DNA from: Candidatus Hermodarchaeota archaeon
GTDB lineage: Archaea; Asgardarchaeota; Heimdallarchaeia; Hodarchaeales; Hodarchaeaceae
Direction: 5' to 3'
Assembly (NCBI GenBank): GCA_048886185.1
Contig: JBHLKY010000002.1
Location: forward strand, 202,359-234,358
Length of the DNA: 32,000 nt
Shown piece by piece: positions 3,344 through 20,900 of the stretch (position 1 is its first letter; every line of letters starts with the position of its first letter). Under the pieces are notes generated by a model, which worked only from the letters and a program-made list of their open reading frames with translations, was not told the DNA's origin and made no database searches. The position numbers and the translations under genes are program-made.

Positions 3344-3369
3344 ATGCTAATTTATTAAATATTATTAAA

Positions 3370-4010: not shown

Positions 4011-4077
4011 ATAGTTTTATAAAGGTTCAACGATTCATGTTATTCGCAACAAAAATATTTTTTAGAAGGTATTTAAA

Positions 4078-4602
4078 ATGTCAGTCCAAATGAATTCATT
4101 TCTAAAATCTATAATTGTTACTATTATAATAACAATTGCTTCCGTTGGATCAACGTTGATAATAAACCCCAATGCGATATTTGTTCCTCAACATCAGTTT
4201 GATTTTGAGCTAACAGATGTAAGAGAGGATGTTAACGACAGTTATGTAGATATTATAAAATATGGTTCTTTTAAGCAGGGCAAAAATGTTGTGTTATATT
4301 TAGAAGTTGCAACACTGATTAACCTTAGTTCACTCTATCGGTTATTTATTGTCGCAAAAACTACAAATGATAATGAGGCTCATATCTATAATAATGAAGT
4401 ACAGGGTGGTACTGAACAAAACTATCAATCAGAGGTAATTATTGATGGTAATCGACTAGAAGTATTTTTTTCAACGGATCGGTTTATCTCGAATTCTTAC
4501 ATGGTTGGTATCGAAGCTGGAGCCCATTCTTTCGCTTCAGAAGATTCCACTCCATCTGCAAGAGATAATCCATTAAAAACACGCTTTTTAGGGTTAATTT
4601 GA
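4078..4602 (+). CDS. Hypothetical exported or membrane-anchored protein
   Basis: 174-aa ORF with an N-terminal hydrophobic helix, a beta-rich soluble part and GAAGGT upstream. No family recognised. Confidence 0.75.
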   Translation: MSVQMNSFLKSIIVTIIITIASVGSTLIINPNAIFVPQHQFDFELTDVREDVNDSYVDIIKYGSFKQGKNVVLYLEVATLINLSSLYRLFIVAKTTNDNEAHIYNNEVQGGTEQNYQSEVIIDGNRLEVFFSTDRFISNSYMVGIEAGAHSFASEDSTPSARDNPLKTRFLGLI

Positions 4603-4634
4603 TTAATAGGTTCTTTCTACAGAGGTTATTAATA

Positions 4635-5102
4635 ATGGAACAAATGTCTAAAGATGAACCAAAACTCGAAGATTTCTTGATTAACCATCAAATTACCTCA
4701 ATTTTCTTACATTTAAAGACCGAGAATAGGCCTTTAGGAGTCCGAGAGATACGAAGAAATCTTAATATGAGTAGTGTGGGTAGTACACACTGGCATTTAC
4801 AAAAATTACTCGAGAATGGTGCTATTAGTCAAGTTCAAGGGAATAAATACCAGCTAGTAGAAAAATATCAAAAAGCGAAAAGTATTCCGGTGAGAGTCGT
4901 CATGAAACATTATTTTGTGGGAAATAAACTTGTACCAAGTATATTTTTTATGTTATTTTACCTCATTAATGTTTTAATTATCACATTATTTACGCTTATC
5001 TTGAATTTGTGGATTTTAGGGTTTTTCATCGGTTTTTCTACTACTTTAGTCAGCTTGGTTGTAGTTTTTCGGTTTTATCAACAATTACCAAAGGATAAGT
5101 AG
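4635..5102 (+). CDS. Winged-helix DNA-binding protein with two C-terminal TM helices (membrane-anchored regulator)
   Basis: LGVREIRRNLNMSSVGSTHWHLQKLLENGAI..QGNKY is a wHTH signature, followed by two hydrophobic helices. Start moved from 4599 to ATG 4635 because GAGGT lies 8 nt upstream. Confidence 0.8.
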   Translation: MEQMSKDEPKLEDFLINHQITSIFLHLKTENRPLGVREIRRNLNMSSVGSTHWHLQKLLENGAISQVQGNKYQLVEKYQKAKSIPVRVVMKHYFVGNKLVPSIFFMLFYLINVLIITLFTLILNLWILGFFIGFSTTLVSLVVVFRFYQQLPKDK

Positions 5103-6053
5103 TAACAAGAGTTTCATGACTTTTTACTACTTATCTGTTTTTTTTGCTTTGGTTTTCATAAATATTGTTTCTGTTAAGAGTAACTAAGTAGATTATTGGC
5201 TATTGCAGTTTGATTGAATTTTTATGACTTATTTCTTGCATTAGCTCAAACCTTATTTTCTTTCTTCATGAATTTAATAAATTTGTTAATGAACACCTAT
5301 TACTTGCACGTGGATCGATTAAAGTGGGAAATATCACCCAAAGTACTCTGTTACGAGATTTGGATTTTTGTATTAGTCCTCAATGTCTTTGGTCTCATGA
5401 ATTCTTGCAAGTTTTTTCATTCTTATTATATTTCAGTATCCCAAGGCCTTGCTTATCTCACAGCCTCAAGTTCAACAAGCCTGTAAGCTCTATGTCAAAT
5501 TGTATGTCTATGGATATATAGCAGAGAGGATACACTTTGGATATGATCAGATTGTTGATTATATCAATAATATCCCTGATAGCGCTTGAGAAATAAGGTC
5601 TGATAAAAATAGCGATATTAAATTCAGTATATTCTGTAGGAATCCAACTCCCCCCTGCAGTTTGATCGATATAACACAATTAGTTAATAGAAATCCAACT
5701 ATTTTCACTGATTTTTAGAGTATAATCTCCTTTAAATTGAACACTTTGTATGATTTTTCCCTAAGATTCTATACTTTGAGCTAGTCTCATAGTGAAAAAA
5801 CTCTTAGCGTTTCCTTTAACCACATGAAAATGATTCTTATGAAAAAATTTTTAACTTATATTCTTCCTAGTGTACTCTCAAGCAGATTCGTTCCATTAGT
5901 GCTGTATATTACGGCATTAACTACAATTTTACTAATAAATACGCCACTTTAATAATCTATTAAAATGTTAGTTAGAATTCGTCCCTAAAACGAATGAATA
6001 CTCTATAAATGCACAACTTGAACAAACAATAAAAAATAATTAAGGGAGACAAA

Positions 6054-7547
6054 ATGAAAGAGATTATTGTCGGAGCTTATCTGACTGTTATAATCCTACT
6101 TAATATTTGGGCACTTAATTTTCTCTTAATTTTCTTGCGTTTTCTATTCATTCGTTTTCGTAATGGTCCTTTTAAATTTGATTTTCCTGCAAAATTTTAT
6201 CCCAAAGTAACGATTCAATTACCTATTTACAATGAACGCCCACAAATGATCCGTTTGATTCTAGAAAGTATTTATCGACAAAACTATCCTCGGAATCTGA
6301 TTGAAATTATTATTCTCGATCAGAGTGATGATAAAGAGATTATTGCAGCCTTAAAGAATGTTGTTGTTGATTTTAAGCGTGCTACAGAAATGAAAACATC
6401 ATTAATTTTTGTAGATCGTTTTGGCGATCCAACTGACACTTCAACCCAATTTAAGGCTGGGTCATTAAATAATGCCACTCAAATAAGTCATGGGGATATT
6501 TTTGTAGTTCTTGATGGAGATTCATATCTTGATCCAAATTATTTGCGGTACTTGATTCCTCATTTTTCCCGTAAAGAAATTGGCTTGGTATTACCTCGAA
6601 TTACGGTTCATAATCATCATAAGGATATTTTTGCCCGATGGACACGATTAACAAATCATATTTATTTTATTCGGAACTATATCGAATCAATTGTTGGTAT
6701 ACCAGTAGGATTCATGGGAAGCGGTGCCGCTCTTCGACGCGAGGTAGCTGAACAATTTCAGTGGGACACAATGCAAGAGGATGGGCTTATGGGATATTAT
6801 GCAACCACTATTGGAAAATGGAGAGCATGGTTTGAAAGTAAAGCGGTTGTGTATGACGAGGGAATAATATATAGCCTTAAGGACGGGAAAAATAGATGGG
6901 CACGATTAGTAAATGGCCAATACCAAATTATTAAAAAAATCAGTCAGGATCCTAAAAATCACAGAATTTTCCTTACCAATCCCCAGATCTTAATTAAGGT
7001 GATCCTAGGGCCTATCTTACCATTTTTAATTCTCCTTCTCCCATTTCTCATGTTCGCAGTCTATTATTGGGAAATCTCATTTAGTTCATGGATTGCCTTT
7101 ACACTTGCTGTCTTTTCATTATTAGGAAGTATTAGTACCATCTTTTTATTGTACATGGTGAAAAAATATAGGAACTATAGCGACCTCCTCTATTATCTAC
7201 TATTTCCTTTGAATGGCATTGTTTGTCTTGTACCAGGTGTTGTAGCCTTTGTCTCTGCCATTATTGGCAAGAAAAAAGTATTTTATCGTGTCCAGCGGCT
7301 AAATGAGAGTATTCCAAAAACTGAAACAAGTGTCAAAGTAATTGAAGCAAGTCTGGCGATCTTTTCTTTCTTTGCCATAATGATATTTCTTCATAATCTA
7401 TCTGCTATAGTCTTCTATGCCACTTATCTGATTGTAATGATAGCTAGTTTTACCAATTTTAGAATCTCTCCACGTAAAACATTAATTGAATTACCCATTC
7501 AACAGAGTGAAGAAATGGATGCAAATTATTTATCCCAAAGAACATGA
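6054..7547 (+). CDS. GT2 family processive-type glycosyltransferase (cellulose-synthase-like)
   Basis: VTIQLPIYNE, LDQSDD, FKAGSLN, DGD (DxD), GFMGSGAALRR, QED, with an N-terminal TM and several C-terminal TMs. The QxxRW motif is degenerate. Confidence 0.88.
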   Translation: MKEIIVGAYLTVIILLNIWALNFLLIFLRFLFIRFRNGPFKFDFPAKFYPKVTIQLPIYNERPQMIRLILESIYRQNYPRNLIEIIILDQSDDKEIIAALKNVVVDFKRATEMKTSLIFVDRFGDPTDTSTQFKAGSLNNATQISHGDIFVVLDGDSYLDPNYLRYLIPHFSRKEIGLVLPRITVHNHHKDIFARWTRLTNHIYFIRNYIESIVGIPVGFMGSGAALRREVAEQFQWDTMQEDGLMGYYATTIGKWRAWFESKAVVYDEGIIYSLKDGKNRWARLVNGQYQIIKKISQDPKNHRIFLTNPQILIKVILGPILPFLILLLPFLMFAVYYWEISFSSWIAFTLAVFSLLGSISTIFLLYMVKKYRNYSDLLYYLLFPLNGIVCLVPGVVAFVSAIIGKKKVFYRVQRLNESIPKTETSVKVIEASLAIFSFFAIMIFLHNLSAIVFYATYLIVMIASFTNFRISPRKTLIELPIQQSEEMDANYLSQRT

Positions 7548-7718
7548 TATTTGTCTTAGATTTAACCAATGGGGTAAATAAGATCAACATTATTGTTCTT
7601 TATCACTGAGATTTTAGCAACTAGTGTCCTTATATTCCGAAAACTTAGTAAAACATTGGTGGAAGATATTAGAAAAACATCTCTATTCCTTTAAAATCCC
7701 ATGATAAGAGGCATTTTC

Positions 7719-8171
7719 ATGTTAAAAAATGTAGAAGAATATCTTAAGGAATCTCTCATACCCTTACGGCTTTCTGGTACTACAGAATCAGGTTGGCCAT
7801 TTGTAATAAGTCTTTGGTATGTCTACTTAAGTGAAAAATTATACATGGCAACCATCAAATCGGCTAAAGTCGTAGAATATCTTTCTAATAATCCAAAATG
7901 TGCTTTTGAGATAGCAAGTGACCTACCACCTTATTGTGGAATTCGAGGACAAGCGACAGCAAGAATTATCGAATCTAAAGGTGATGAAATCTTAGAAATC
8001 CTCCTTAATCGGTATCTAGGGGGGAAAGAAAACCCCTTGGCGCAAAAACTAATGAATCGGAGAGTATCGGAGGTGGCAATTGAACTTACTCCAGTCAAAG
8101 TATATCAATGGGATTATAGTAAGCGAATGTATAACTCAATTAAGTCTCCTTTGGCAAAAACATGTCCTTAG
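7719..8171 (+). CDS. Pyridoxamine 5'-phosphate oxidase-like flavin-binding (split-barrel) protein
   Basis: LRLSGTTESGWPFVISLWY, SAKVVEYLSNNPKCAFEI, GIRGQATARI. Start at ATG 7719 (GAGG upstream) rather than 7701. Confidence 0.8.
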   Translation: MLKNVEEYLKESLIPLRLSGTTESGWPFVISLWYVYLSEKLYMATIKSAKVVEYLSNNPKCAFEIASDLPPYCGIRGQATARIIESKGDEILEILLNRYLGGKENPLAQKLMNRRVSEVAIELTPVKVYQWDYSKRMYNSIKSPLAKTCP

Positions 8172-8220
8172 TCTGAAAAGCAGAGGAATAAATAAAATAG
8201 AAAATCAGAGGTGTGGCATC

Positions 8221-8640
8221 ATGTCCGAAATTCAATATTCTGCAGGTGTGTGCAATATTGGTGAAGCTGAAATAAAACAAAGACGTCGAATAGGATATAT
8301 TGGCCTTGTTCTTACAGTGATCACAATTATTGTATATTTAATATTGATTTATTCCATAAAACTTGATCCACTTTTTGGAGTGATTATTTTCATACCTGCT
8401 GAAATGACAACTATTGGATTAATCCAAGCCAGGAGTAAATTTTGTGCAGCATATGGACTGACTCACCAACAGAACGTTTCCTCAAGTTTAGGTTTGACGA
8501 TAAAAATAGAAGATGAAGTTTCCCAGAGAGAAGACAGGAATAAAGCAATTAAAATTGTTTTTCAATCCTTAATAATTGCACTGATTATAACTGTTTTCAC
8601 AATTATTGGAGGAATTATAATAAGACAAATGAGTTTTTAA
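8221..8640 (+). CDS. Conserved-looking hypothetical membrane protein (CNIG..E..RR..G / FCAAYG motifs)
   Basis: ATG 8221 gives MSEIQYSAGVCNIGEAEIKQRRRIG, three hydrophobic segments and two motif Cys. The 8080 start overlaps the previous gene and is unlikely. Confidence 0.75.
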   Translation: MSEIQYSAGVCNIGEAEIKQRRRIGYIGLVLTVITIIVYLILIYSIKLDPLFGVIIFIPAEMTTIGLIQARSKFCAAYGLTHQQNVSSSLGLTIKIEDEVSQREDRNKAIKIVFQSLIIALIITVFTIIGGIIIRQMSF

Positions 8641-8686
8641 ATCTAAAATGAAGAAATATACAGTTTAAAAACAAGAAAGAATCAAA

Positions 8687-9580
8687 ATGAAAGTTGGATT
8701 TGTTGGATCAGCTAATACTACTGTTAGATGTAGGCCAGATAAGTCCTTTCGTTTAGCCTCTTATTCCAAGAAAAGAGTCATGCAAACTATTGAGTCAAAT
8801 CTCCAATGTTTACAAAAAACGATCGATTTTAGTACACAAAATAATCTCTACTGTTACCGAATTGCTGATTTCATCCCTTTTTTTTCTCATCCTATTTCAC
8901 TTCCTTGGCATGAAGTTGAAGATACTTTTTCTGATTTGTTTACAAGTATAGGAAAAAGAGTTAGAAAACATAATATGCGAATCAGTATGCACCCAGGTCA
9001 ATATACGATAATAAATTCTCCTAAAGATGAGGTGGTTGAAAAAAGTATAAAAGAATTAGAGGCAAATGCTTGGATATTGGATAAACTGGAATTAAATAAT
9101 ACAGCAAAAGTGCAAATTCATGTAGGGGGAATTTATGGAAATAAAGAAGAGGCTCTTCAACGGTTTATCCAAAATTTTGACTATTTACCTGAATCTATTA
9201 AGAAACGACTAGTAATAGAGAACGATGATCGATTATTTGATTTTAAAGACTGTTCAACTCTATCCACAGAGCTAAAGATCCCTGTTGTATTTGATGTATT
9301 TCATCATTCGATAAAAAATAATAATGAGGGTATTATAGAATCGTTAGATATTTTATTAGACCTATGGAAAACAGATGATGGAACCCCAATGGTTGATTGG
9401 AGTCACCAAGAACCAAAAGCTCGAATAGGGAGGCATGCAAATTCAATTGATCTGGATCTCTTTAAAGTATTCATTCATGAAACAGAGGGAATGGATTTTG
9501 ATTTAGTGCTTGAAATACGAGATAAAGAGAAAAGTGCGATGAAAGCTGCCGACTGGTTACGTAAAATAGGGAGAATTTAA
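8687..9580 (+). CDS. uvsE: UV DNA damage endonuclease (UVDE)
   Basis: YRI..FIPF.SHP, MRISMHPGQY, IHVGG.YG.K, LVIENDD, VFDVFHH, HA, LEIRDKEKSA match UvsE/UVDE TIM-barrel motifs. Confidence 0.93.
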   Translation: MKVGFVGSANTTVRCRPDKSFRLASYSKKRVMQTIESNLQCLQKTIDFSTQNNLYCYRIADFIPFFSHPISLPWHEVEDTFSDLFTSIGKRVRKHNMRISMHPGQYTIINSPKDEVVEKSIKELEANAWILDKLELNNTAKVQIHVGGIYGNKEEALQRFIQNFDYLPESIKKRLVIENDDRLFDFKDCSTLSTELKIPVVFDVFHHSIKNNNEGIIESLDILLDLWKTDDGTPMVDWSHQEPKARIGRHANSIDLDLFKVFIHETEGMDFDLVLEIRDKEKSAMKAADWLRKIGRI

Positions 9581-10963
9581 ATGGGCAACGTAGATACTTC
9601 AAATGAGAAATCTCTTTTCATTTTTAGAAGAGATCTGCGCCTAGTTGATAATAATGCTCTCATTTCTGCTATTGAATCTTCAAAACAAGTTATTCCCATA
9701 TTCATTTATGATATATTTCTTCTTAATAACCCAAATCGTAGTAAAAACGCTATTCAATTCATGCAGGAATCGATTCATGATCTTCAGGGTCAGCTAGAGG
9801 AAGCAGGAGGAAAATTATTTCTATTTGAAGGAAAACCTTGGCTTATAGTCAATAGATTGTTAAATGATCGTGAATTAGAGGTCAAATCCATTTTTATTAA
9901 TCGAGATTATACCCCATACAGTCAGAAACGTGATATTTTAATATCTGAAGTGGCTAAGGATAGAAATGTAAAATTTCGGATTTTTAGTGATCTTTTATTA
10001 AATGAACCTGAATCAGTGGTAAAAAAGGATGGCACTCCTTATACTGTATTTACTCCTTACTACAAAAAAGCAACTGAATATTTAATTACAACTCCTAAAA
10101 AAAATATGCTGGATAATATTTACTCTAATCCTATTGATTCCGAATTAAAGTTTCAAAAAGAGGATTTTCAAACAAATCCTCATACTTTTATCAAAGGGGG
10201 GCGAAAGAATGGATTAAAAATCCTTTCTGAAATCCATAGGTTCCGAAATTATGAAATTGAAAGAAATTTCCCCGCAAAACAGGGGACAACATTTCTCTCA
10301 GCACATCTACGATTTGGAACCATTTCAATACGAGAAGCATATCATAAGATCTACACACAAGATATTCTACCATTAGTAAGACAACTTTACTGGAGAGATT
10401 TCTATTACTATATTGGTTTTCATTTTCCACATGTGTTTAATAAGCCCTTCCGAAAGAAATATAAATCTCTTAAATGGTCTGATAATAAAGAAACATTTAA
10501 ATTATGGTGTGAGGGGAGGACTGGCTTTCCGATAATAGATGCAGGTATGAGACAGCTCAATAAAACTGGTTTTATGCATAATCGAGTTCGCATGATTGCA
10601 GCTTCCTTTTTAACTAAAGATCTACTAATCAATTGGCAATGGGGAGAAAAATACTTCGCTCGTAAATTAATAGATTATGACCTTTCGGTAAATAATGGAA
10701 ATTGGCAATGGAGCAGCAGCACAGGCTGTGACCCCGTTCCGTATTTCCGTGTTTTCAATCCTTGGACACAGCAAAGAAAATTTGATCCGAAATGTGAATA
10801 TATCAAGAAATATATTCCAGAATTAAGAGAATTGAGTCCAAAAGAAATCCATGGCTTAGAAAAATGGACACCTGAAGAGTTACAGTATCCTAAGCCAATC
10901 GTGGATCATTCAAAGGCTCGTACACGAGCAATAATTATGTTCAAGAATATCCAAGAAATCTAA
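9581..10963 (+). CDS. phrB: Deoxyribodipyrimidine photolyase (class I CPD photolyase/cryptochrome family)
   Basis: FRRDLRLVDNNAL, LSAHLRFGTIS, QLYWRDF, W..G.TGFPIIDAGMRQL, MHNRVRM, LIDYD..VNNGNWQW, RVFNP..Q..KFDP. The ATG immediately follows the uvsE stop. Confidence 0.95.
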   Translation: MGNVDTSNEKSLFIFRRDLRLVDNNALISAIESSKQVIPIFIYDIFLLNNPNRSKNAIQFMQESIHDLQGQLEEAGGKLFLFEGKPWLIVNRLLNDRELEVKSIFINRDYTPYSQKRDILISEVAKDRNVKFRIFSDLLLNEPESVVKKDGTPYTVFTPYYKKATEYLITTPKKNMLDNIYSNPIDSELKFQKEDFQTNPHTFIKGGRKNGLKILSEIHRFRNYEIERNFPAKQGTTFLSAHLRFGTISIREAYHKIYTQDILPLVRQLYWRDFYYYIGFHFPHVFNKPFRKKYKSLKWSDNKETFKLWCEGRTGFPIIDAGMRQLNKTGFMHNRVRMIAASFLTKDLLINWQWGEKYFARKLIDYDLSVNNGNWQWSSSTGCDPVPYFRVFNPWTQQRKFDPKCEYIKKYIPELRELSPKEIHGLEKWTPEELQYPKPIVDHSKARTRAIIMFKNIQEI

Positions 10964-11016
10964 AGACAGATTTCTTAATACTAGGTATCTCTATTTGTTG
11001 AGAGAGTTTTTTACTG

Positions 11017-11754
11017 CTAAAAAATTCGACCTAAAGATGCATCTAAGACTTTTCCAGTCATCAAAGGGGTTGTAGCAGCAAATTCTATCATATCATTCAA
11101 ATCCTCTGGTAATAAAGGATAATCAAGAAGCTGCTTTGATATCATTGAAGATGATAAAATTTCAGCTGTAGTGCTGGTTTTCACAGCTTTTTTCTCCAAT
11201 TCTCTTTTGTGACGATCCGTAAAAACATATGTAGGAGATATACCATTGATTCGAATTTTTGGGGCTAAAACTACAGCCATTGAGCGAATTAAATAAACTA
11301 ATCCAGTTTTTGCCACTCCATAAGGCATCTTATCCAATGAAGGTTCATAAGCGGAAGAACTGACAATATGTACGATAGTTCCACCCTCAGACATGAGTTC
11401 AGCCGCCATCCTTGTTAATAAAAAAGCAGATGTTAAATTTACACTTAATACCAAATTAAAAAAAGAAGCATCAACTTCCAATGGATTTTTTGAAGCCAAA
11501 GATCCTCCTATAGTATTTATCAGGATATCTATTGATCCAATTTCATTTTGTATCCACTTTTTTAATTTCTTAATTCCTTCTTCAATTGTACAATCTGCTG
11601 AAATACATCTAATACCTGGAAAACGATCTTTTGACATATTCAGACTGCATATGAGAACTTGATTCTCCTGATTAGAGATTTTTCTCATAATTGCCTCACC
11701 AATCCCTCCAACTGCAACACCTGTTATTAGCACTCTTTTATTCTGAATAATCAC
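11017..11754 (-). CDS. Classical short-chain dehydrogenase/reductase
   Basis: ITGVAVGGIG Rossmann motif, ILINTIG, VNL, IVSS and catalytic YGVAK. Confidence 0.9.
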   Translation of the reverse strand: MIIQNKRVLITGVAVGGIGEAIMRKISNQENQVLICSLNMSKDRFPGIRCISADCTIEEGIKKLKKWIQNEIGSIDILINTIGGSLASKNPLEVDASFFNLVLSVNLTSAFLLTRMAAELMSEGGTIVHIVSSSAYEPSLDKMPYGVAKTGLVYLIRSMAVVLAPKIRINGISPTYVFTDRHKRELEKKAVKTSTTAEILSSSMISKQLLDYPLLPEDLNDMIEFAATTPLMTGKVLDASLGRIF

Positions 11755-12046
11755 ATCTGATTACCTCAATTTTAGTAATTAATCTTTAATTTATTTATCT
11801 CATTTCTTGAATTTCGTTAAGAAAAATAAATTTAACAGTATTTATAGTATGTACTGAAAAATTTCTTAAATCAAGCTAAAAATAAAGACAGAATCATGAA
11901 TCTGGAGAAATCATAATATAACTCTGAGCCAAAAAATGTCAAGAATGATTTAGACTATCCGAGTGTCACTCTGCAACCAGAGAATAGGAACAACTAAAAT
12001 CGAATTTTCGGAGTAGATTATAGTTGAGATTGGAGATGAAAAATTA

Positions 12047-12448
12047 ATGCCACATGTTGTTTTAAAAGGAAGTGTTCACGTAAAAGAGATTTTCACAATT
12101 ATAAATCCAATATTCGTTAGATTAGAAAATGGTCTAATCAAATCTAGTGAATTCTTTATTTCACAAAATGAGAATAGTATGATTATAAAAGCATTGAGTA
12201 TTGAAAATGAAAAGAAGATTTCTTTTCTTATCCTTATAAGTAATCGTGATGATGGAATTGTCATAAGGTTATATCCAGATTTTGATATCCCTAAGACTTT
12301 TGGAGTCAAAAAGATGTTAGCCGAGATAGCTATTCTGATTCTTAAGGAATTTAAAGGATTATCTGTTGGAAAAACGAATTTAAGCGAATTTTTACAAAAA
12401 AAACTTTTGATTTTATCAGAAAAAGAGAAATTCCACACCTTAAAATAA
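12047..12448 (+). CDS. Hypothetical protein
   Basis: 133-aa ORF with GGAG upstream and globular composition. No family assignable from memory. Confidence 0.7.
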   Translation: MPHVVLKGSVHVKEIFTIINPIFVRLENGLIKSSEFFISQNENSMIIKALSIENEKKISFLILISNRDDGIVIRLYPDFDIPKTFGVKKMLAEIAILILKEFKGLSVGKTNLSEFLQKKLLILSEKEKFHTLK

Positions 12449-12474
12449 TGTTACACTGTGTTCTTTAGTGATAT

Positions 12475-12942
12475 TCAGCTCTTAAATAATGTATAATCTC
12501 CTAGAAATCCCCAGTCTTCAATCTTATTGTACTTTGTCTTTCTTGATCGAAAATGCACCCAAATTGTGGCCTTATCAAGAAAGGGATTAGCATGAAAATG
12601 CTTTTGATCACCATATCGAAAGGCTTCTAGCACTAGGGGTAATTCCTGACGAAAAATTCTATCCCGAAACTTCAAAGTACCAATTCCCCCACTTAGTTGA
12701 CAATAGACATGGAGTGAATGTGTTGCTTCAGTTTTCAACCATTCAGCCAATACTTCATCCCGCATTATCCTTGTTTGCCATCCTTTAAGCTGTTTTTTGT
12801 AAAATTCATGGGCAATAGTGAGAAATAAATCTCCTGTCCGATCTGAATGGGTCAATGTATAACAGCGAGGTACTAGAGGGGAATCAATACCCGTTGGGGA
12901 TAAAAATGTAACATGTAATTTATTTGGGTTCAAACGATTCAT
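12475..12942 (-). CDS. Staygreen (SGR) family protein, Mg-dechelatase homolog
   Basis: LNPNKLHV, PRCYTLTHSD.TG.LFLTI, RDEVLAEW, LHVYC, R..IF..ELP..L.AF.YGD, I.VHF.S....YNKIE.WG are the characteristic SGR blocks in the correct order. Confidence 0.92.
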   Translation of the reverse strand: MNRLNPNKLHVTFLSPTGIDSPLVPRCYTLTHSDRTGDLFLTIAHEFYKKQLKGWQTRIMRDEVLAEWLKTEATHSLHVYCQLSGGIGTLKFRDRIFRQELPLVLEAFRYGDQKHFHANPFLDKATIWVHFRSRKTKYNKIEDWGFLGDYTLFKS

Positions 12943-14471
12943 TCTAGAAATCCTTCCGTCAAAAAGCGCTTAGTGGATGATAAATAATAGGGCTTGGAAG
13001 TAGAATTAACCTTTTCGAATTTAGGAGAATCTCTATTAATATTCATGCAGATCTCATCTATCAATTGTTTTGATATTCTGTCAAAAAGAGGTTGGAAAGC
13101 AAACCAATACGATATTCCAATAAGTCCTTTTGGGACGATTCTAAAAATCTGATGAAGTTCAATTTTTTTATCATTAATACGCCTTAAACGATATCTTAGC
13201 ATTGTATACCCCGGTATTATCAAGTCTGTATGTAAGGTTAGTTCCCTCTTTGGAATTTTATTCTGCATTGCAAGAGGGATCTCATTAATATCGATTTTAA
13301 CTTTAAAACCTCTGAAAAAACTATCTAGAAAAGCACCAAATTTCCAAAAGTATGAAATAATTCGCAAATTACCATACTGTTGAATCTGAAGTAATTTGTT
13401 CCACAAATCATCAGCACTACCACTTAAAATGGCCCTACGATGATCTTGGAAAACTAATCCTCCAGACCAAGGTGGGTCTCCTGGAATATGCCATTCAACA
13501 GGCAAATCAGCGTAGTTAGAATAACTTCCATGCATTAGATACTGTTGAGGGTTTAAAGCTAGTCGAATCGCTTGTTTGTGATTTAATAATTCTTGTGGAA
13601 TTAATTCTCTTATCCTAAAATCTTGACAAATAACCTCATTCTTCATTCCATCTATCAATGGACGAGCTAGGGATGATGGAATTCCTGTAATCAATCTAAT
13701 CCAATAAGAACTTAAGCTAGGAGTGAAGAAGGGTATAGGGAAAATTAATCGTCTTGGTAATCTTATAATTTCTATATAACTTTCCATAAACTGTTTATAA
13801 GTAATAATATCGGAACCACCAATATCAAAAGCCTCACCGATTGTTTCTGGTACATCCAAACAGTCAGTCAGATATTTAAGAACATTTTTAATGGCTATAG
13901 GTTGATTCTTAGTTCTAAGCCACTTGGGTGTAATCATAATTGGTAGTCTATCTACTAAGTATCTCATCATTTCAAAGGCTGCGCTCCCACTTCCAATAAT
14001 AATTGCTGCACGTAACGTTGTAACTGGTATTGAACAAGAATCTAGTATTCTAGAAACTTCAATCCGAGACTGCAGATGTTTACTTAATTTTTCTTTTTCA
14101 TCCCCTAATCCCCCTAAATAAATTATTCTCTCAATTGCTGCATTCTCTGCTGCAATAATTGTGTTTTGTGCTGCAATTCTATCGGATTCAATAAAATCTT
14201 TTATTTTCCCTTCCATAGAATGGATTAAGTAGAAAACCGTGGATACTTCATCCATTGCGTCTTCTAAGGTATTAATATCGAAAACATTAAGATTTACTGC
14301 TTTTAAATTTCTATGATGGCTCCACAATCGCGAATTCAATTTGTTTTTTGATCTAAACCCCACACGTACAATATATCCTTTTTCTAAGAGTTTTGGCACA
14401 AGTCTAGACCCTATGTAACCCGTTGCTCCAAGTACAAGAAGTTCTTTCTGTTTCAACATAAGTTTCTCCAT
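12939..14471 (-). CDS. Atypical SDR / NAD(P)-binding protein, YbjT-like, with DUF2867-like C-terminal domain
   Basis: LVLGATGYIGSRL, FYLIHSM, IIYLGGLG, SKHL.SR.EV, LRAAIIIGSGSAAFEM, QPIAI, W.GG, PKGL.G..YW. Its stop overlaps the SGR start (ATGA, 12939-12942). Confidence 0.85.
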   Translation of the reverse strand: MEKLMLKQKELLVLGATGYIGSRLVPKLLEKGYIVRVGFRSKNKLNSRLWSHHRNLKAVNLNVFDINTLEDAMDEVSTVFYLIHSMEGKIKDFIESDRIAAQNTIIAAENAAIERIIYLGGLGDEKEKLSKHLQSRIEVSRILDSCSIPVTTLRAAIIIGSGSAAFEMMRYLVDRLPIMITPKWLRTKNQPIAIKNVLKYLTDCLDVPETIGEAFDIGGSDIITYKQFMESYIEIIRLPRRLIFPIPFFTPSLSSYWIRLITGIPSSLARPLIDGMKNEVICQDFRIRELIPQELLNHKQAIRLALNPQQYLMHGSYSNYADLPVEWHIPGDPPWSGGLVFQDHRRAILSGSADDLWNKLLQIQQYGNLRIISYFWKFGAFLDSFFRGFKVKIDINEIPLAMQNKIPKRELTLHTDLIIPGYTMLRYRLRRINDKKIELHQIFRIVPKGLIGISYWFAFQPLFDRISKQLIDEICMNINRDSPKFEKVNSTSKPYYLSSTKRFLTEGFLE

Positions 14472-14483
14472 TTTAAGAGGATA

Positions 14484-15206
14484 TTAATAATCCTGGCGTG
14501 CTTTCCAGAAATCACCATAAAAGAAAAAACCAATTAATTGAGAAAATACAAATATTATTAATATGATTACTCCTATAACCTGTAATATAAGAATTTGATT
14601 ACTATAATATATAGATAAAGGGATAAAGTTCAGCAGAAACCAGATCCATGAAAAAATCGGAGCAGATATAAACATAAGAGATCTTTTCCATTTTGAAACC
14701 GATAAGAAGGAATTTAAATCGTATTTTATTCCAAAAGTAGGAAATTTAGCAATAGGTGCCCAAGACATCCACCTTGTTTTACGAAAAGTGGATTTAAAAA
14801 TAAAGTATTTCCGAAATCTAATTCCTAAGAAAAATCCAAATATCCAATGGATTAGGGTATGAGAAAGTATAAAATTTACAAAACTTAGTAAAAAATAAAT
14901 AATAATACTAAACCAAAAATCTATAGAAAATATAAAGATTAAAAAATAGAGACTTTCAATTATGATAACGCTAGCTGAGAATAGTATGGTACCAGTTTTA
15001 ATTGAAAATTTTGGAATAGTCCAACTATCGAAGAAAAATTCGTCAATTTTCCCTAGGATATTTCTATCTTCCTTGGTTAATTTGGCTTTTCGTGCGTATT
15101 TTACTGCTGTGAGATATTTTTGCCAATGACTCTTCCGATTTAATGTTCCTGTTTCATATAATTCCGTTAATTCCTTGACATTTTTGTTGAATTTGGTGCT
15201 ATCCAT
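14484..15206 (-). CDS. Hypothetical membrane protein with an M50 (site-2 protease)-like HxxxH ... GD layout lacking the catalytic Glu
   Basis: TM helices, SHTLIHW within a helix, an ISAP segment and a terminal YGDF. The family assignment is tentative. Confidence 0.6.
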   Translation of the reverse strand: MDSTKFNKNVKELTELYETGTLNRKSHWQKYLTAVKYARKAKLTKEDRNILGKIDEFFFDSWTIPKFSIKTGTILFSASVIIIESLYFLIFIFSIDFWFSIIIYFLLSFVNFILSHTLIHWIFGFFLGIRFRKYFIFKSTFRKTRWMSWAPIAKFPTFGIKYDLNSFLSVSKWKRSLMFISAPIFSWIWFLLNFIPLSIYYSNQILILQVIGVIILIIFVFSQLIGFFFYGDFWKARQDY

Positions 15207-15342
15207 TAGAAAGCCTTCTTAGGAGCTATAGTAACTACTGTTCATACCATTGAAAACAATAATTCTCAAGATTTTTTTGAAATATTTCGAAAATTCATTA
15301 GGTTTCAAGAATAAAAAGAGGAGAAGGATCAGGATGATCCAA

Positions 15343-16155
15343 TTAAGCAAAAATTAATCCCATAAAAACAATCCACGCTAGTGCTGATTTAGCAAAGAGG
15401 CTTAATAATTGATAACCTCTTTCTCCATATAGATAATCTTTCCAAGGGCCAATTTTCTTATACTGAAGAAACATATTCAGGGCAAAGCTATTAAAGAAGA
15501 CAAAATAAACTACTAGGGCAACATAGACAAAAGTAGGGACTTCACGTCCTACTGTGTTAATACTCAAGAATGTGTCGAGAATGACGATCCAGGGCATTAT
15601 TCCAGCTATCCATCCCAAGATATAAGGAGTCCAACTTGTTTTTTCAGTATATTGGTTATAAGTCTCCATTAACAATCCAAACATGTTCATTAATCCATTA
15701 AGTACGAAAATCAGAGCAAGGATCCAAAATTCGAGTATACCAAAAGCGAGTGCAATGAAAATGATCATCACCGAACTAGAAAAAGCATATTCGTACCAAC
15801 GAATGGGATTCATTTTCTTCTTCAAATTGGTTACATATTTGTTATATAATGGATAAGCAATCAGTAAATGTGCAATAGCTGACATCAGAAGAAAACTAGC
15901 TAACAGGATACCTGCAATGTTTTTAAAAGTGAAAAATACTTCAGGAACGGGCTCAAGGATTGGCCTAGTACCAGTTAATTCTTTTATATCGAGATAGGAT
16001 CTATAGATGTCAATCTCGAAGTTTTTTATTTCATCAACTACTAAGCTTAGAGCAAATATAACTATTGCTTGCACTAAGTGTAGGATACCCATGGCTAAAT
16101 TGAATTTCCGTAGATAGGAAAATGAAATTTTTGATTCTTCAACATGTGTTGACAT
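15343..16155 (-). CDS. Heliorhodopsin
   Basis: LRKFN..G.LH..Q, S...H, NP.RWYEY..SSS (counterion E122), MN.FG..ME, FN.FA.NM.LQY, GE..Y..LSLFAKS.LAW (Schiff-base K256). AGGAGG RBS upstream. Confidence 0.96.
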   Translation of the reverse strand: MSTHVEESKISFSYLRKFNLAMGILHLVQAIVIFALSLVVDEIKNFEIDIYRSYLDIKELTGTRPILEPVPEVFFTFKNIAGILLASFLLMSAIAHLLIAYPLYNKYVTNLKKKMNPIRWYEYAFSSSVMIIFIALAFGILEFWILALIFVLNGLMNMFGLLMETYNQYTEKTSWTPYILGWIAGIMPWIVILDTFLSINTVGREVPTFVYVALVVYFVFFNSFALNMFLQYKKIGPWKDYLYGERGYQLLSLFAKSALAWIVFMGLIFA

Positions 16156-16366
16156 AATGCAACCTCCTAGTGAATTGGCCTTTAACTTGATAGTTTATAA
16201 ATTCGTTGTGATGATAAAAACGTATTTTCCTCAAGAAAGATTATGGCGAATTTTTAAGAGAAAAGAGATTAATGAGAAAAAAACAAAGAACTCATTATAA
16301 TGAGGATTATAAACCTACCAATAAATGAGTAAGCACTTCTGAAATCATAAAGAAACGTGATAGTTA
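16156..16366. promoter_or_regulatory. Divergent promoter region between heliorhodopsin and the TspO-like gene; contains the perfect 14-bp palindrome CTCATTATAATGAG (16291-16304)
   Basis: On the minus strand, CGAA-TTTATAAA (BRE/TATA-like, about 16205-16194) lies about 40 nt before the heliorhodopsin ATG. The palindrome was verified by eye, with extra AATGAG half-sites near 16271 and 16324. Confidence 0.55.
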
Positions 16367-17134
16367 ATGTCCATTATGAAAAAAAGACAATTTTTAATTT
16401 ATGGTAATGTATTGAGTTTTATTTTAACCATAGTGATGAATTCTTTGGCAAATATTCTTCCTTTAAACGGAAAAACAACTGGAGAACTCAGTGACACTTA
16501 TCCAAACTTATTTATTCCTGCTGGGTATGTTTTTAGTATTTGGGGTCTGATTTACATCTTATTAACAATTTTTACAATTTCCCAGGCCCTACCAAAGTAT
16601 AGAGAAGAGGATGTTGTAAAAAAAATCTCTTATCTCTTTATTGTGAGTAATCTTGCCAATTCCGCGTGGATTGTATTTTGGCATTATGAAGTTATAATCG
16701 CTTCCTTATTGGTTATGTTGATACTCCTTGCCTCTTTAATTCTAATTTACATCCGATTAGAAATTGGAAAGAAGCCTGTGAGTCAAAAAGTTAAGATTAC
16801 TTCTCATATCCCATTTAGCGTTTACCTAGGATGGATTACTATTGCAACTGTTGCAAATGTCACAGCTTTACTTGTATCAATAAACTGGGATGGTTTTGGA
16901 ATAAGTGAAATCATCTGGACTGCAGTTGTAATATCTGTGGCAACACTGATTGCACTAATTCTGATATTTACACGTAAAGACTATGGCTACACTTTGGTTC
17001 CTGTTTGGGCTTTTATAGGTATTGCAGTAAAGCAATTTAATGCCCAAAATAACGTTGTTATTATCTCTTTTATAGCAGCAGGCATTTTAATCATAACATT
17101 GTTTGCTAGATTTACCTGGGATATAACTAAATAG
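16367..17134 (+). CDS. TspO/MBR-related tryptophan-rich membrane protein
   Basis: S..YP.LFIPAGYVFSIWGLIY, N..WI..WHY, PFSVYLGWITIATVAN, about 8 TM helices. It is longer than canonical 5-TM TspO. Confidence 0.78.
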   Translation: MSIMKKRQFLIYGNVLSFILTIVMNSLANILPLNGKTTGELSDTYPNLFIPAGYVFSIWGLIYILLTIFTISQALPKYREEDVVKKISYLFIVSNLANSAWIVFWHYEVIIASLLVMLILLASLILIYIRLEIGKKPVSQKVKITSHIPFSVYLGWITIATVANVTALLVSINWDGFGISEIIWTAVVISVATLIALILIFTRKDYGYTLVPVWAFIGIAVKQFNAQNNVVIISFIAAGILIITLFARFTWDITK

Positions 17135-17139
17135 GAAAA

Positions 17140-18030
17140 TTGAAAATGGATGAAAAAGATATCAAATCACTTGTTGCTATACTTATAATAATATTCATTG
17201 CTGCATGTCTTGCCCTCATTGGTAGCCAGGGAGGCGTTACTGTTCTCGATGGAATACCAGTATTCGCATTTGCAGTAGCTATTGCCTTTATAATTCAATG
17301 GATCGCTTTCATCCCTGCGTATATCAAAAGAACAGAGAAATTCTTTGATCTGACTGGCTTTTTAACTTACAGCATCGTTATTATTCTATCGGTTGTTTTG
17401 AGTCCTGAAATCAATACACGGTCTATTTTGTTAATGTTATTAGTCTTGATCTGGGCGATTCGCCTTGGAATATTCTTGTTTCAGAGAATTCTAAAAGAGG
17501 GCAAGGATAAACGATTCAAGGAGATTAAACAAAATGCTTACCATTTTCTATTGGCTTGGACACTCCAAGGTTTATGGGTTAGCTTTACATTGGCAGCGGC
17601 TTTAGCTGCAATAACAGCAGGGCAGAACGAGGAATTTGATATTTTTGGTTTAATTGGTCTTTTAGTTTGGATCAGTGGTTTTGGATTTGAAGCTATTGCA
17701 GATTATCAGAAAAGTAAATTCAAATCTAAATCTGAGAACAAAGGAAAATTCATTGCTAGTGGATTGTGGTCAATATCACGACATCCAAATTATTTTGGAG
17801 AGATCATCCTTTGGATAGGTATCGCAGTTATTGCACTTCCAACACTTCAAGGTTGGAGATGGATGACATTAATTTCTCCTGTTTTTGTTACATTACTATT
17901 GACTAGAGTTAGTGGTATTCCGCTACTTGAGAAACATGCAGATGAAAAGTGGGGTGGTCAAGAGGAATACGAACAATACAAAAAAAAGACACCAGTACTA
18001 ATCCCAAGACCATTCTTGCTAAAAAAATGA
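17140..18030 (+). CDS. DUF1295 family membrane protein (steroid 5-alpha-reductase-like)
   Basis: EKFFDLTG, IWAIRLG.FLF.RI...G.DKRF, AW.LQG.W, E.IAD.QK..F, GLWS.SRHPNYFGE, SGIP.LE, Y..Y...TP. Confidence 0.9.
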   Translation: MKMDEKDIKSLVAILIIIFIAACLALIGSQGGVTVLDGIPVFAFAVAIAFIIQWIAFIPAYIKRTEKFFDLTGFLTYSIVIILSVVLSPEINTRSILLMLLVLIWAIRLGIFLFQRILKEGKDKRFKEIKQNAYHFLLAWTLQGLWVSFTLAAALAAITAGQNEEFDIFGLIGLLVWISGFGFEAIADYQKSKFKSKSENKGKFIASGLWSISRHPNYFGEIILWIGIAVIALPTLQGWRWMTLISPVFVTLLLTRVSGIPLLEKHADEKWGGQEEYEQYKKKTPVLIPRPFLLKK

Positions 18031-18379
18031 ATAAACTACCTTATAAACTCTAAGAACTGAACTCTATTATAAATAAGAAAAACTAGTAATTACAGAGCTA
18101 ACTATGGACTGTCATCAGTTTGTACTCCATTGGGATCTGCGTAAGATTATTTAACCTTTTGAATTATTATTATGAAGAATAGTGAGAGCAAAGAAATCTT
18201 TATAAATCCCAACGACTGGTTTGAATTACGATTACAACCCGGTTTCATCTTTTATTATGAAATTTTTCTCAAAAACTCTTCTAAGACCTTCATTTAATTA
18301 AATCCATTTTAACACCAAGATACACAATCAAGAAAGTAGATAAGATCATTTAAATGAAAAGAAATTTATGGCTCTGGGA

Positions 18380-18916
18380 TTAAATATTTGACAGTGTATT
18401 AAGAAGCTCGTCAGTACCCATTAAATCTGCGAAGTAGCTACCAAGAACAGTGTTATGATGTTTTATTATTTGCTTTGCTGAAAAATGCTTAGAATGCCAT
18501 GTGCTGTGACAGTCCTTTACAAGTGTTACATCATACCCCAAGCTGTAAGCTCGTCTTACAGTCGTATCAATACAGTATTCTGTTTGAAGACCAATTACTA
18601 TGACTTTTTTCACGTTCATTGATTTCAATAATTCATCCAAATTCGTTTGGTGAAATGAATCAGGTGTTGTCTTCTGAAGAACAGGCTCCTTGTGATTTGG
18701 TCTAACCTTTGGATGAATTTCCCATCCTTCAGATCCAGATTCATCTGGATCACCCTTTTCACCCATATTTTGAATATAAATGACTTTGTGTCCCATTTTT
18801 CTGGCTTTATTTAGAATTTTTTTAGCATTCTCAAGTAATAGATCACCTTGGAATATTGGAGGTGATCCAACGAAATTTCCAACCTGTAAATCGATGATTA
18901 TTAGTGCTACAGTCAT
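18380..18916 (-). CDS. Cysteine hydrolase (isochorismatase/nicotinamidase family)
   Basis: Asp-Lys-Cys triad in IIDLQ, LQKT.PDSF..T.L and GLQTEYCIDTT. Confidence 0.92.
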   Translation of the reverse strand: MTVALIIIDLQVGNFVGSPPIFQGDLLLENAKKILNKARKMGHKVIYIQNMGEKGDPDESGSEGWEIHPKVRPNHKEPVLQKTTPDSFHQTNLDELLKSMNVKKVIVIGLQTEYCIDTTVRRAYSLGYDVTLVKDCHSTWHSKHFSAKQIIKHHNTVLGSYFADLMGTDELLNTLSNI

Positions 18917-19001
18917 GAGATCATTTCTCTCCTTGATATTATATTTAAAAAAGAAGTTAAGACTCTTTCTTATATTGTTTTCAAGGATAATGCATGATAC
19001 C

Positions 19002-19655
19002 TTATGACTCTTTCTTCCATAGATATTCTATGTAATTAGCAGTATTACACGCAACTTCTTCCCCAACAAGTTCAGAAACTAAAAATAGACTCATATCAAT
19101 CCCAGCTGCTACTCCAGCAGAAATCACAATCTTTCCTTGTCCTGTGACAACAAATCGTTTACCTTGCATTACATGGACCTTAGGATAGGTTTTTCTCATC
19201 CGTTCGATACTTGCCCAGTGAGTTGTAGACTCAAAACCGTCTAATAGACCAGCCTCGGCGAGAAGAAAACTCCCTGTGCATACACTCGCCATCAACTGAA
19301 CTTTTTCCCATTGAGTCCTCAACCATTCAATTAAAACAAAGTTTTTTACTTCTTTTCGGGTTCCCCATCCTCCTGGAACCAAGACAAGATCAAATTTCGG
19401 ATGATTATTAAAATCATAATCTGTATCAACTTTTAGGTCACCACGACATTTTATTAGGCCACCATTTTCAGATATTAGCCTAACAGAAAAAGGGCATTTA
19501 TCAGTTCGCTGATTTTTTGTATCCAAGAATCTAGCAACAGAGAAAACCTCAAAAGGTCCACAAAAATCTAAAACCTCAACTTGTTCAAACACTAGAATCC
19601 CTACAATCCATGGAATATTTTCACGAGGTAATTTTATCACGTTTAAGCTTTTCAA
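19002..19655 (-). CDS. DJ-1/PfpI (ThiJ/InhA-like) family protein
   Basis: EVLDFCGPFEVF, LVPGG.G, nucleophile SVCTGSFLLAEAGLLDG..TTHW, SAGVAAGIDM. Confidence 0.92.
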   Translation of the reverse strand: MKSLNVIKLPRENIPWIVGILVFEQVEVLDFCGPFEVFSVARFLDTKNQRTDKCPFSVRLISENGGLIKCRGDLKVDTDYDFNNHPKFDLVLVPGGWGTRKEVKNFVLIEWLRTQWEKVQLMASVCTGSFLLAEAGLLDGFESTTHWASIERMRKTYPKVHVMQGKRFVVTGQGKIVISAGVAAGIDMSLFLVSELVGEEVACNTANYIEYLWKKES

Positions 19656-19685
19656 TAAACCATCTCAATCAATTGTTAGAGTGAC

Positions 19686-20900
19686 TTATTTATGCAATTT
19701 TAGATCTTTGCTAAAGAATAAAAAACTTATAATCAAGAAAAGCCCGAATAAAGTGGATAAACCACTTAGAATAAAGGCTGCATCTAAATTTGAAAAGAAA
19801 TCTGCAATAATACCAAATGTTATGGAACCAATCCCGAAACCTGTAGCTAATCCAGTACCAAATACCCCCATTGCTAACCCCCGCTCCTCACGTTTTGTGT
19901 CTACTGCAACGAGAGAGATTAACGAAGGATAGATGATACCAAAGCCAAATCCCGCGAAAAAAAGTGGAATTATTACAACGATTGGGTCTGTGATTACTGG
20001 TGTGATCATGATACCAACCCCAATGCAGGTTATCCCTAAAAACATGTTAAACCTATTGCCTATCAACCCAGTAATTCTTGCTGTCAATAAACGACTGAGT
20101 AGCGCACTAATATCTCGAAATGCCAACAATATCCCTATCTCCAATGAGAATAACCCTAATCCCCTAAGAAATAACGGATGGAAGGAAACCCCAACACTGT
20201 AGCTCAATGTCATCAGAAAAGATCCAAAAGTTGCTAATGCAACATTTCTCTTGTTACGAAAAAGGTAGATACCTTTAGAGTAACTTTCAAGAATCCCCTT
20301 CTTCTTCTGAATAAATACTTTATTAGGTTCCTGATCTCTTATTCTCTGATTTCTCCTCAAAAGAAGAAGAGTCGAAAAAAATCCTACCACAGCAAGGCAC
20401 GTGAAAGCCACGAAAACAGATTCATAATTAATATGATCAATTAGCATCCCAGCAATCGGGGGACCAGTCAATTGGCCTAATCCTGTGATCGCTAAATAAT
20501 GTCCCATAATCTGAGGCCTTTCACTCTCACTCCCTAATTCTGAGATATATGCGGGTTCTGTTACGCGAAATGACGCTGCTGTAAGTCCCCACAACATCTG
20601 CGCAGGTAGAAATAGAAGAACTTGTTTCATGACCATCCCTATGAAGAATGTCACTCCTGAAGCCAATCCAAGAATAAATGAAATACCATAAAAAAGTTCC
20701 CAACCAAACATGTCAGCACTTTCTCCCATTGGCATACGGAGTCCTGATTGAATTATTGCCCTTGTACTTGCTATTAATCCTACTAATGCTGTCGTAGCCC
20801 CCAAAGCACTAGCTGCTAATGGCACTGTTGGACTTAATAGACCTAACATGGTAGTATATATAGTACCAATACATATAATCAAGAAAAAATCCGTATTCAA
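19686..20900 (-). CDS. MFS transporter
   Basis: About 12 TM helices in two halves, P.G..AD..G motif A, GP..AG, ERGLAMG.F. TTG start. Confidence 0.9.
   Translation of the reverse strand: MNTDFFLIICIGTIYTTMLGLLSPTVPLAASALGATTALVGLIASTRAIIQSGLRMPMGESADMFGWELFYGISFILGLASGVTFFIGMVMKQVLLFLPAQMLWGLTAASFRVTEPAYISELGSESERPQIMGHYLAITGLGQLTGPPIAGMLIDHINYESVFVAFTCLAVVGFFSTLLLLRRNQRIRDQEPNKVFIQKKKGILESYSKGIYLFRNKRNVALATFGSFLMTLSYSVGVSFHPLFLRGLGLFSLEIGILLAFRDISALLSRLLTARITGLIGNRFNMFLGITCIGVGIMITPVITDPIVVIIPLFFAGFGFGIIYPSLISLVAVDTKREERGLAMGVFGTGLATGFGIGSITFGIIADFFSNLDAAFILSGLSTLFGLFLIISFLFFSKDLKLHK

Follow-up and report, generated by a model that had tools for sequence, protein, structure and literature searches.

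A Staygreen-family gene in a heliorhodopsin-led string within a light-damage gene island of a non-photosynthetic Asgard archaeon

Plant Staygreen (SGR) is the enzyme that strips magnesium from chlorophyll, and both the SGR homologues of non-photosynthetic prokaryotes and the heliorhodopsins (HeRs) are families without a settled natural role. Here we analysed an SGR gene in a 32,000-nucleotide stretch of DNA (the window; contig 2 of genome G000, C2:202359-234358) from a Hodarchaeota-like archaeon whose 4.84-Mb genome is 96% complete. The gene ends a string of four co-directional genes, encoding in order a HeR, a membrane protein, an atypical short-chain dehydrogenase (SDR) and SGR, which are separated by gaps of 136 bp and 12 bp and a 4-bp overlap. 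The string lies inside an island of roughly 10 kb that also carries genes for a photolyase, UvdE, a TspO-like protein, a DUF1295 protein and a classical SDR. The initial annotation of this DNA singled out the pairing of SGR with the adjacent SDR; a stronger context, which it missed, is the HeR gene two genes upstream together with the surrounding light-damage island. SGR is a recurrent member of such a light/photo-oxidative-stress neighbourhood in two unrelated phyla, and very probably it is part of a light-stress gene set. Our explanation of the locus as a whole, put forward at a little below even confidence, is that a competent SGR in a light/photo-oxidative-stress island of this non-photosynthetic Asgard archaeon disarms exogenous chlorophyll-type pigments.

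Conservation of the SGR protein

In hmmscan searches the 155-residue protein matched the Pfam Staygreen family (PF12638) with an E value of 3.8e-48 and 163.5 bits (cut-off 27), over positions 2-147 of the 147-position profile. The sole SGR homologue with a solved structure is AbSGR-h from an Anaerolineae bacterium (PDB 7Y5Y; PMC8531759, PMC11006732), to which residues 1-152 of the archaeal protein align with an E value of 1.6e-47 and without a gap as far as residue 87. The two proteins share family and length, and both hosts are non-phototrophs; here the host is a Hodarchaeota-like archaeon. Residues R26, Y28, T29, T31, H32, S33, D34, T36, R61, D62 and E63 carry identical numbers in both, with the THSD and RDE motifs at the same alignment positions. 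AbSGR-h has a two-residue insert after position 87 that the archaeal protein lacks, so its R95 and D114 are matched by R93 and D112 in the latter. All residues defined by mutagenesis are kept. In AbSGR-h, which has high in vitro activity on chlorophyll a, the D34N and D62N proteins are soluble and inactive, H32A is weakly active, and mutants of R26, Y28, T29 and D114 are both insoluble and inactive (PMC8531759); the four structural positions R26, Y28, T29 and D112 are all present in the archaeal SGR. Moreover, the THSD/RDE catalytic residues are invariant in 23 HeR-linked SGRs. Thus, the full-length Pfam match and the 7Y5Y alignment bear out the initial annotation of an intact SGR homologue with H32, D34, D62 and D112. 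That the gene encodes a catalytically competent, metal-removing enzyme of the Staygreen family is a prediction from these residues, which we hold jointly with the whole explanation above and at the same tentative level.

The closest SGR genes are those of Hodarchaeota and "Promethearchaeota" metagenome-assembled genomes (66-85% identity). Identity is 54-59% to the nearest 50%-cluster representatives and 55-58% to named Chloroflexota/Anaerolineales proteins. With the STAY-GREEN proteins of plants and green algae (SGR/SGRL) the archaeal protein shares a homologous catalytic domain, in which about 45-52% of residues are identical, but it has neither a transit peptide nor a C-terminal extension, and its host makes no chlorophyll.

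A tree of 142 rows (IQ-TREE quick search, LG+C20; plant and Bacillota rows named by cluster look-ups) divides into a group of Bacillota, one of plants/streptophytes, and a clade of Asgard, Chloroflexota, Bathyarchaeia and other sequences with 96% support in the Shimodaira-Hasegawa-like approximate likelihood ratio test (SH-aLRT). The window SGR falls inside the Asgard f1 clade (98%), and Asgard SGRs branch at two or more points of the prokaryote clade. A position near eukaryotic SGR, which the initial annotation had raised as a question for phylogeny, was not seen. The plant SGRs lie in a clade of their own, outside the 96%-supported one, and on this ground we reject vertical descent of SGR from Asgard archaea to eukaryotes.

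Internal stops or a truncated ORF (open reading frame) mark the SGR copies of some relatives, namely L005:6001-6465, G059:C1:90359-90781 and G188:C1:3184683-3185129; in L005 an ORF of 95 residues is left, and the tblastn match spans residues 1-145. The gene is under loss in some lineages. The SGR open frames of L057 (G368:C1:611491-611931) and L078 (7632-8510) are about 300 residues long, double the usual length, which may reflect an N-terminal extension, a fusion or an artefact of ORF calling. A search for longer SGR homologues (fusions) returned three matches, a EukProt protein, a 294-residue JGI protein and an SGR+DUF3888 fusion (metagenomic P0123), all uninformative on function.

Linkage of SGR and heliorhodopsin in Asgard archaea

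We surveyed 400 Asgard genomes, comparing HeR and SGR coordinates by hand and calling the genes linked when they lay within 5 kb of each other. SGR was present in 108 genomes, HeR in 132 and both in 81. The two genes were linked in 29 of these 81, in three families: in 7 of 12 genomes of the archaeon's own genus (f1), in one of three genomes of f7, and in f20 in 8 of 35 (genus g53), 13 of 19 (g54) and none of two (g55). By chance, two single genes would be expected within 5 kb of each other in about 0.25% of 4-Mb genomes. The arrangement varies, with HeR before SGR, SGR before HeR, the two divergent, or different genes between them. In f20 the fixed neighbours of SGR are a divergent classical SDR and a downstream CMAS-like S-adenosylmethionine (SAM) methyltransferase, often with HeR, Fpg or photolyase nearby.

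A second, independent arrangement of SGR with a rhodopsin is that of family f12, in which SGR is present in 10 of 19 genomes and HeR in none. Here (L046-L049, L073) a type-1 rhodopsin, a fasciclin, a peroxiredoxin and SGR form a string, with a divergent photolyase gene. SGR also follows a peroxiredoxin gene in f31 (L059, L060, L074).

SGR neighbourhoods outside Asgard archaea

A pattern scan of GTDB species genomes (alignment A2) gave 80 loci, ranked on SGR similarity alone and not on context. The 75 non-Asgard loci (58 from Chloroflexota, 11 from other archaea and 6 from other bacteria; median locus 11 kb) were scored for neighbours by six-frame hidden Markov model (HMM) searches of the fetched flanks. 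An ORF cluster of the high-GC loci, "c4", was rejected as SGR, and because of this the high-GC loci were re-scored by the six-frame searches. MFS genes occurred in 20 of the 75 loci; HeR, photolyase and a MerR+B12-binding regulator of the CarH/LitR type in 10 each, the last always in Chloroflexota; DUF1295 in 8, SDR-DUF2867 in 7, and UvdE and TspO-like genes in 6 each. At least one of HeR, photolyase, UvdE and CarH was found in 28 of the 58 Chloroflexota loci. In Bathyarchaeia and in Chloroflexota there are loci in which a TspO-like gene directly adjoins SGR.

Plant pheophytinase is an alpha/beta hydrolase, and alpha/beta-hydrolase genes lie beside or near SGR in the Anaerolineae loci L087, L113, L117 and L114. 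For that reason, these hydrolases are candidates for dephytylation.

In the literature library that was searched we found no publication that joins heliorhodopsin with staygreen, stay-green or dechelatase, and SGR is not listed in a large study of HeR gene context (PMC8612252). The gene context of AbSGR-h is likewise not discussed in the published work on that protein.

In several genomes the linkage is close. HeR and SGR are adjacent with gaps of about 12-70 bp in the relatives L006/L039, L037 and L038, and HeR directly adjoins SGR with gaps of the same size in the Anaerolineae loci L079, L081, L086, L088 and L132, the ORF calls overlapping in L081; in several Anaerolineae HeR is the gene immediately upstream. 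Residues E122 and K256, on the pattern of HeR 48C12 the counter-ion Glu and the Schiff-base Lys, are invariant among 23 SGR-linked HeRs (alignment A5).

This adjacency, together with the 29 linked Asgard genomes, would fit a model in which SGR is a client of HeR, the photoreceptor binding it at the membrane and switching its activity with light. There are precedents for a HeR that regulates the product of a neighbouring gene; partners encoded alongside are glutamine synthetase (AbHeR, PMC9529153), photolyase (TfHeR, PMC9769723) and the ABC transporter OmrDE (OcHeR, PMC11109279). As in those operons, the archaeal HeR shares one string with a soluble enzyme, and a photolyase is encoded in the same neighbourhood; in contrast, the partner here is SGR, and the pairing is one of gene adjacency. 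A prediction of the HeR-SGR complex (alignments A5, A6) scored 0.00 and gave no answer, which is evidence neither way. By analogy, direct regulation of SGR by HeR is plausible. However, co-regulation explains the adjacency equally well, and SGR is also found in light islands without HeR, as in f12, and far from HeR in complete genomes. We consider the client model unlikely.

A facultative SDR partner

The SDR gene overlaps SGR as the initial annotation described: ORF coordinates and the junction sequence, which reads ...tctagaATGAatcgt... on the minus strand, both place the SGR ATG across the SDR TGA stop, with two bases shared (ATGA; 4-bp ORF overlap). A GGAAGGA run lies about 11 nt 5' of the SGR ATG. 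In the protein collection the SDR begins at its second Met, giving 506 residues.

NAD_binding_10 (E 3.1e-14), NmrA and Epimerase match the SDR only over residues 8-160, and the nearest solved relatives of this N-terminal half are atypical SDRs of the NDUFA9 type. In the SDR and its orthologues (alignment A4) the nucleotide-binding core G-T-G-Y-G (G15, T17, G18, Y19, G21) is invariant. The usual YxxxK site reads S-K-H-L-x-S-R, with H132 and R136 invariant, and because the canonical residues are replaced, catalysis by the SDR is uncertain. The C-terminal half has no Pfam match of its own. Over its full length, though, the protein aligns with Chloroflexota orthologues that match PF11066 (DUF2867) with E values of 1e-31 to 1e-33, and JGI labels Asgard relatives "YbjT (DUF2867 family)". 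The two-domain layout is probably that of Escherichia coli YbjT-type proteins, with an NAD(P)-binding and a DUF2867 domain, but in this lineage the DUF2867 domain has a deletion that removes about nine residues of the conserved RRGRR...GDxLDFWRV stretch, and Pfam no longer detects it. The predicted structure of the C-terminal 221 residues, of moderate quality (predicted local distance difference test 60.7), shows a strand, two helices, a sheet and a long helix, a helix-grip topology. In Foldseek all matches to this model were SRPBCC/Bet v 1/START proteins, with template modelling (TM) scores of only 0.3-0.5. The literature gives no function for any YbjT-type protein with NAD(P)-binding and DUF2867 domains.

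The SDR family is present in 37 of the 400 Asgard genomes, 21 of which also carry SGR. In three of the 21 (G000, G074 and G104) the two genes lie no more than 5 kb apart, the distance in G104 being 2.6 kb, and in a fourth linked case, G075, they lie 7 kb apart on one contig; in the other 17 they are unlinked. In family f20, SGR occurs in 64 of 135 genomes, and not one of the 135 has this SDR. Among the 75 non-Asgard loci the SDR lies within 8 kb of SGR in the 7 that contain it. In three Chloroflexota loci (L106, L128 and L139) it immediately follows SGR, and in L106 the genes overlap by 4 bp in the reverse of the archaeal order. Coupling in other genomes, which the initial annotation had made a test of its proposal, is therefore present. 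In genome G067 a 53-residue SGR fragment (C1:1543065-1543223) lies about 7 kb from an SDR-DUF2867 gene (C1:1534432-1535901), and an intact SGR is found 1 Mb away beside a HeR gene; the fragment may be what is left of an earlier SDR-SGR pairing.

These data bear on the proposal, made in the initial annotation, that the SDR and SGR act as a dedicated two-step pathway on a metallo-tetrapyrrole, NAD(P)H-dependent reduction being followed by demetallation, and that their pairing reveals the native substrate of SGR. Tight coupling in both gene orders (the ATGA overlap in the archaeon, the 4-bp overlap of the adjoining genes in Anaerolineales/Chloroflexota) argues for a functional relation, as does the proximity in G104, and the modelled helix-grip domain could accommodate a large hydrophobic ligand. 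An obligate pathway, however, is opposed by the many SGR-bearing genomes that lack the SDR, f20 foremost, and by the 17 genomes in which the two are unlinked. Moreover, the best solved relatives of the SDR are of the NDUFA9 type, its YxxxK site reads H...R, no NCBIfam model came near its cut-off for the protein, and we found no specific similarity to divinyl reductase or another tetrapyrrole reductase; the partial deletion of the DUF2867 domain in this lineage also speaks against a dedicated role. A dedicated two-step pathway is thus quite improbable. The linkage of the two genes is real but loose, and the SDR is a facultative partner of SGR.

Tetrapyrrole supply of the host

The initial annotation found no chlorophyll synthesis genes in the window, and this holds genome-wide. 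We detected no gene for ALAD, porphobilinogen deaminase, CobN/Mg-chelatase, the ChlM C-terminal domain or a photosynthetic reaction centre (Photo_RC) in the host genome, while control genomes were positive. The host appears unable to make any tetrapyrrole. Since the early tetrapyrrole genes were not found, any tetrapyrrole substrate of SGR must come from outside the cell, and an exogenous chlorophyll-type pigment would be the likeliest. At 2303-3343 of the window the initial annotation labelled a Mo-oxidoreductase that carries, as a fusion, a possible di-haem cytochrome b domain; the host may depend on imported haem or corrinoids.

Other genes and control regions of the island

The features of the island are collected in Table 1. 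The string is probably transcribed as one, so that SGR would be expressed with, or just behind, HeR, the membrane protein and the SDR. A TTTATAAA box about 45 nt and an AGGAGG about 8 nt 5' of the HeR ATG lie in the divergent control region, and the box is a putative promoter. The 136-bp spacer behind HeR may act as a partial terminator or hold an internal promoter.

Table 1. Coordinates of the genes and control regions in and around the heliorhodopsin-SGR string (window positions)
Feature	Position	Strand	Evidence or remark
UV damage endonuclease UvdE	8687..9580	+	PF03851 E 3.8e-54
DNA photolyase	9581..10963	+	PF03441 E 3e-82; PF00875 E 9.4e-37
Classical short-chain dehydrogenase, 245 aa	11017..11754	-	adh_short, adh_short_C2
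133-aa ORF, convergent with SGR	12047..12448	+	No family match
Staygreen (SGR, Mg-dechelatase family), 155 aa, last gene of string	12475..12942	-	Pfam PF12638; match to PDB 7Y5Y
YbjT-like atypical SDR, 510 aa; N-terminal NAD(P)-binding Rossmann and probable, divergent DUF2867 helix-grip C-terminal domain	12939..14471	-	Pfam, orthologues, model
Multi-pass membrane protein, 240 aa, no named family	14484..15206	-	12 bp upstream of SDR
Spacer between heliorhodopsin and membrane-protein genes, 136 bp; GGATCA/TGATCC inverted repeat, then T-run	15207..15342	-	Read directly
Heliorhodopsin, first gene of string	15343..16155	-	Pfam PF18761 E 2.6e-86; NCBIfam HeR equivalog NF038020 306.8 bits (cut-off 100)
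Divergent control region, heliorhodopsin (-) / TspO-like gene (+)	16156..16366	.	Read directly
TspO/MBR-related membrane protein, 255 aa	16367..17134	+	Six-frame genome search, TspO_MBR
DUF1295 membrane protein (steroid-reductase/ICMT-like superfamily)	17140..18030	+	Pfam PF06966 E 3.4e-68

The TspO-like gene is the sole match to TspO_MBR (PF03073) in a six-frame search of the genome, with 29.7 bits (cut-off 24) at window positions 16493-16867; its orthologues in L089 and L134 scored 30.6 and 23.3 bits. The protein exceeds canonical TspO in length by about 100 residues, and a PDB profile search with the family gave no TspO match. DUF1295 recurs near SGR in Asgard archaea and Chloroflexota, the classical SDR is kept near SGR within the same genus, and photolyase and UvdE are recurrent neighbours of SGR. 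The 240-residue membrane protein has no Pfam or NCBIfam match, and the closest relatives (G074, loci L002/L041) are the only others in which it was found. An Atlas feature search led to unnamed clusters and, weakly (language-model score about 0.8), to DUF3267/M50-like membrane zincins; an HTLIH motif lies in a predicted helix.

The 133-residue ORF has a 47%-identical counterpart ORF in the relative L005. It overlaps a 120-residue ORF on the opposite strand, so one of the two is spurious. A PNPOx-like ORF (7701-8171, plus strand) and a small membrane-protein ORF (8080-8640, plus strand) overlap by 92 bp as listed; because orthologues of the latter are about 139 residues long, its real start probably lies close to 8220. 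The two genes accompany the island in the relatives L002, L040 and L042. The stretch is present in four sediment metagenome runs of one study, which may be its source, and no RNA run is listed as holding it.

Photolyase, a SAM methyltransferase, a CrtI-like oxidase and SDRs cluster in the B12-dependent CarH/LitR and the Rhodobacter sigmaE-ChrR regulons as they do around SGR, and the Chloroflexota SGR loci carry a MerR+B12-binding regulator. However, neither regulator gene was seen in the archaeal window (no MerR or B12-binding domain was found in the 20 window ORFs scanned, 956-20900), and SGR, HeR and TspO-like proteins are not described members of those regulons.

Discussion

What SGR does in this setting can be proposed with less assurance than its membership of a light-stress gene set. 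In the explanation that we favour, chlorophyll-type pigments would be taken up from the sediment and SGR would strip their magnesium. The demetallated photosensitisers would then be bound, reduced, broken down or exported, so that no singlet oxygen is made in the membrane. HeR would serve as the light sensor of the string and the TspO-like protein as a tetrapyrrole-binding membrane protein of the island, while SDR-DUF2867 may be a facultative helper on the same or a related hydrophobic substrate. Removal of Mg from exogenous chlorophyll-type photosensitisers as the job of SGR is a possibility that we rate at, or slightly under, the level of the explanation as a whole. It is supported by the sole known chemistry of the family, by the invariant catalytic residues, by the recurrence of TspO-like and MFS genes as neighbours and by the lack of tetrapyrrole synthesis in the host.

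Several observations weigh against this explanation. Linked genes were found in none of the three f4 and none of the seven f31 genomes with both SGR and HeR, the two genes lie far apart in the complete genomes G188 and G368, and related genomes are non-independent samples. Outside Asgard archaea, HeR, photolyase, UvdE and CarH were found in none of the 17 loci from phyla other than Chloroflexota. The 255-residue TspO-like protein gave no match in hmmscan. Pheophytin and pheophorbide are still photosensitisers, and Mg removal alone does not detoxify. Furthermore, chlorophyll dechelation by bacterial homologues is regarded as a promiscuous activity (Obata et al. 2019, as summarised in a 2026 preprint), and for that reason the native substrate of SGR may differ. 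Finally, the lipid-handling neighbours of SGR resemble the singlet-oxygen regulon of Rhodobacter.

In an alternative reading the native substrate is not a tetrapyrrole: SGR would act in light-induced membrane repair or remodelling together with its lipid-handling neighbours, and chlorophyll dechelation would be a side activity. The CMAS-like methyltransferase directly downstream of SGR and the divergent classical SDR in f20 point in this direction, as do DUF1295, DegV and a CrtI-like amine oxidase. The gene set resembles the Rhodobacter sigmaE core regulon, which comprises a photolyase homologue, a cyclopropane-fatty-acid-synthase-like methylase and the RSP1091-1087 operon making furan fatty acids (PMC3546557, PMC7380195); membership of DUF1295 in that regulon, which we had considered, found no confirmation in these papers. 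A host that makes no tetrapyrroles also fits. On the other hand, Mg removal from chlorins is the only biochemistry known for the family, the residues it needs are invariant, and a TspO-like protein recurs beside SGR. We regard a non-tetrapyrrole substrate as doubtful.

The disarming of exogenous chlorophyll-type pigments can also be extended to a broader, more speculative and unlikely picture, in which a portable light-defence module is common to Anaerolineae and sediment Asgard archaea. HeR would sense light and control a chlorophyll-disarming set by co-expression or contact, SGR would remove Mg, the TspO-like and YbjT/DUF2867 proteins would bind or reduce the chlorin, and MFS proteins would export it, protecting chlorophyll-free heterotrophs from photosensitisers that phototrophs nearby release. 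If this picture were true, it would settle the long-standing question of what prokaryotic SGRs do natively, and give HeRs one physiological output.

Asgard SGRs are not the direct source of the plant SGRs, and so the gene says nothing about the origin of eukaryotes. Its context provides the first such clue for the uncharacterised YbjT/DUF2867 family, and an environmental chlorophyll-type substrate would point to an interaction between heterotrophs and the debris of phototrophs in sunlit sediments. Our data suggest that orphan SGR enzymes help protect non-photosynthetic microbes from light. The pairing of SGR with HeR, repeated in the light-damage islands of two unrelated phyla, thus provides a concrete hypothesis for both families that can be tested at the bench.

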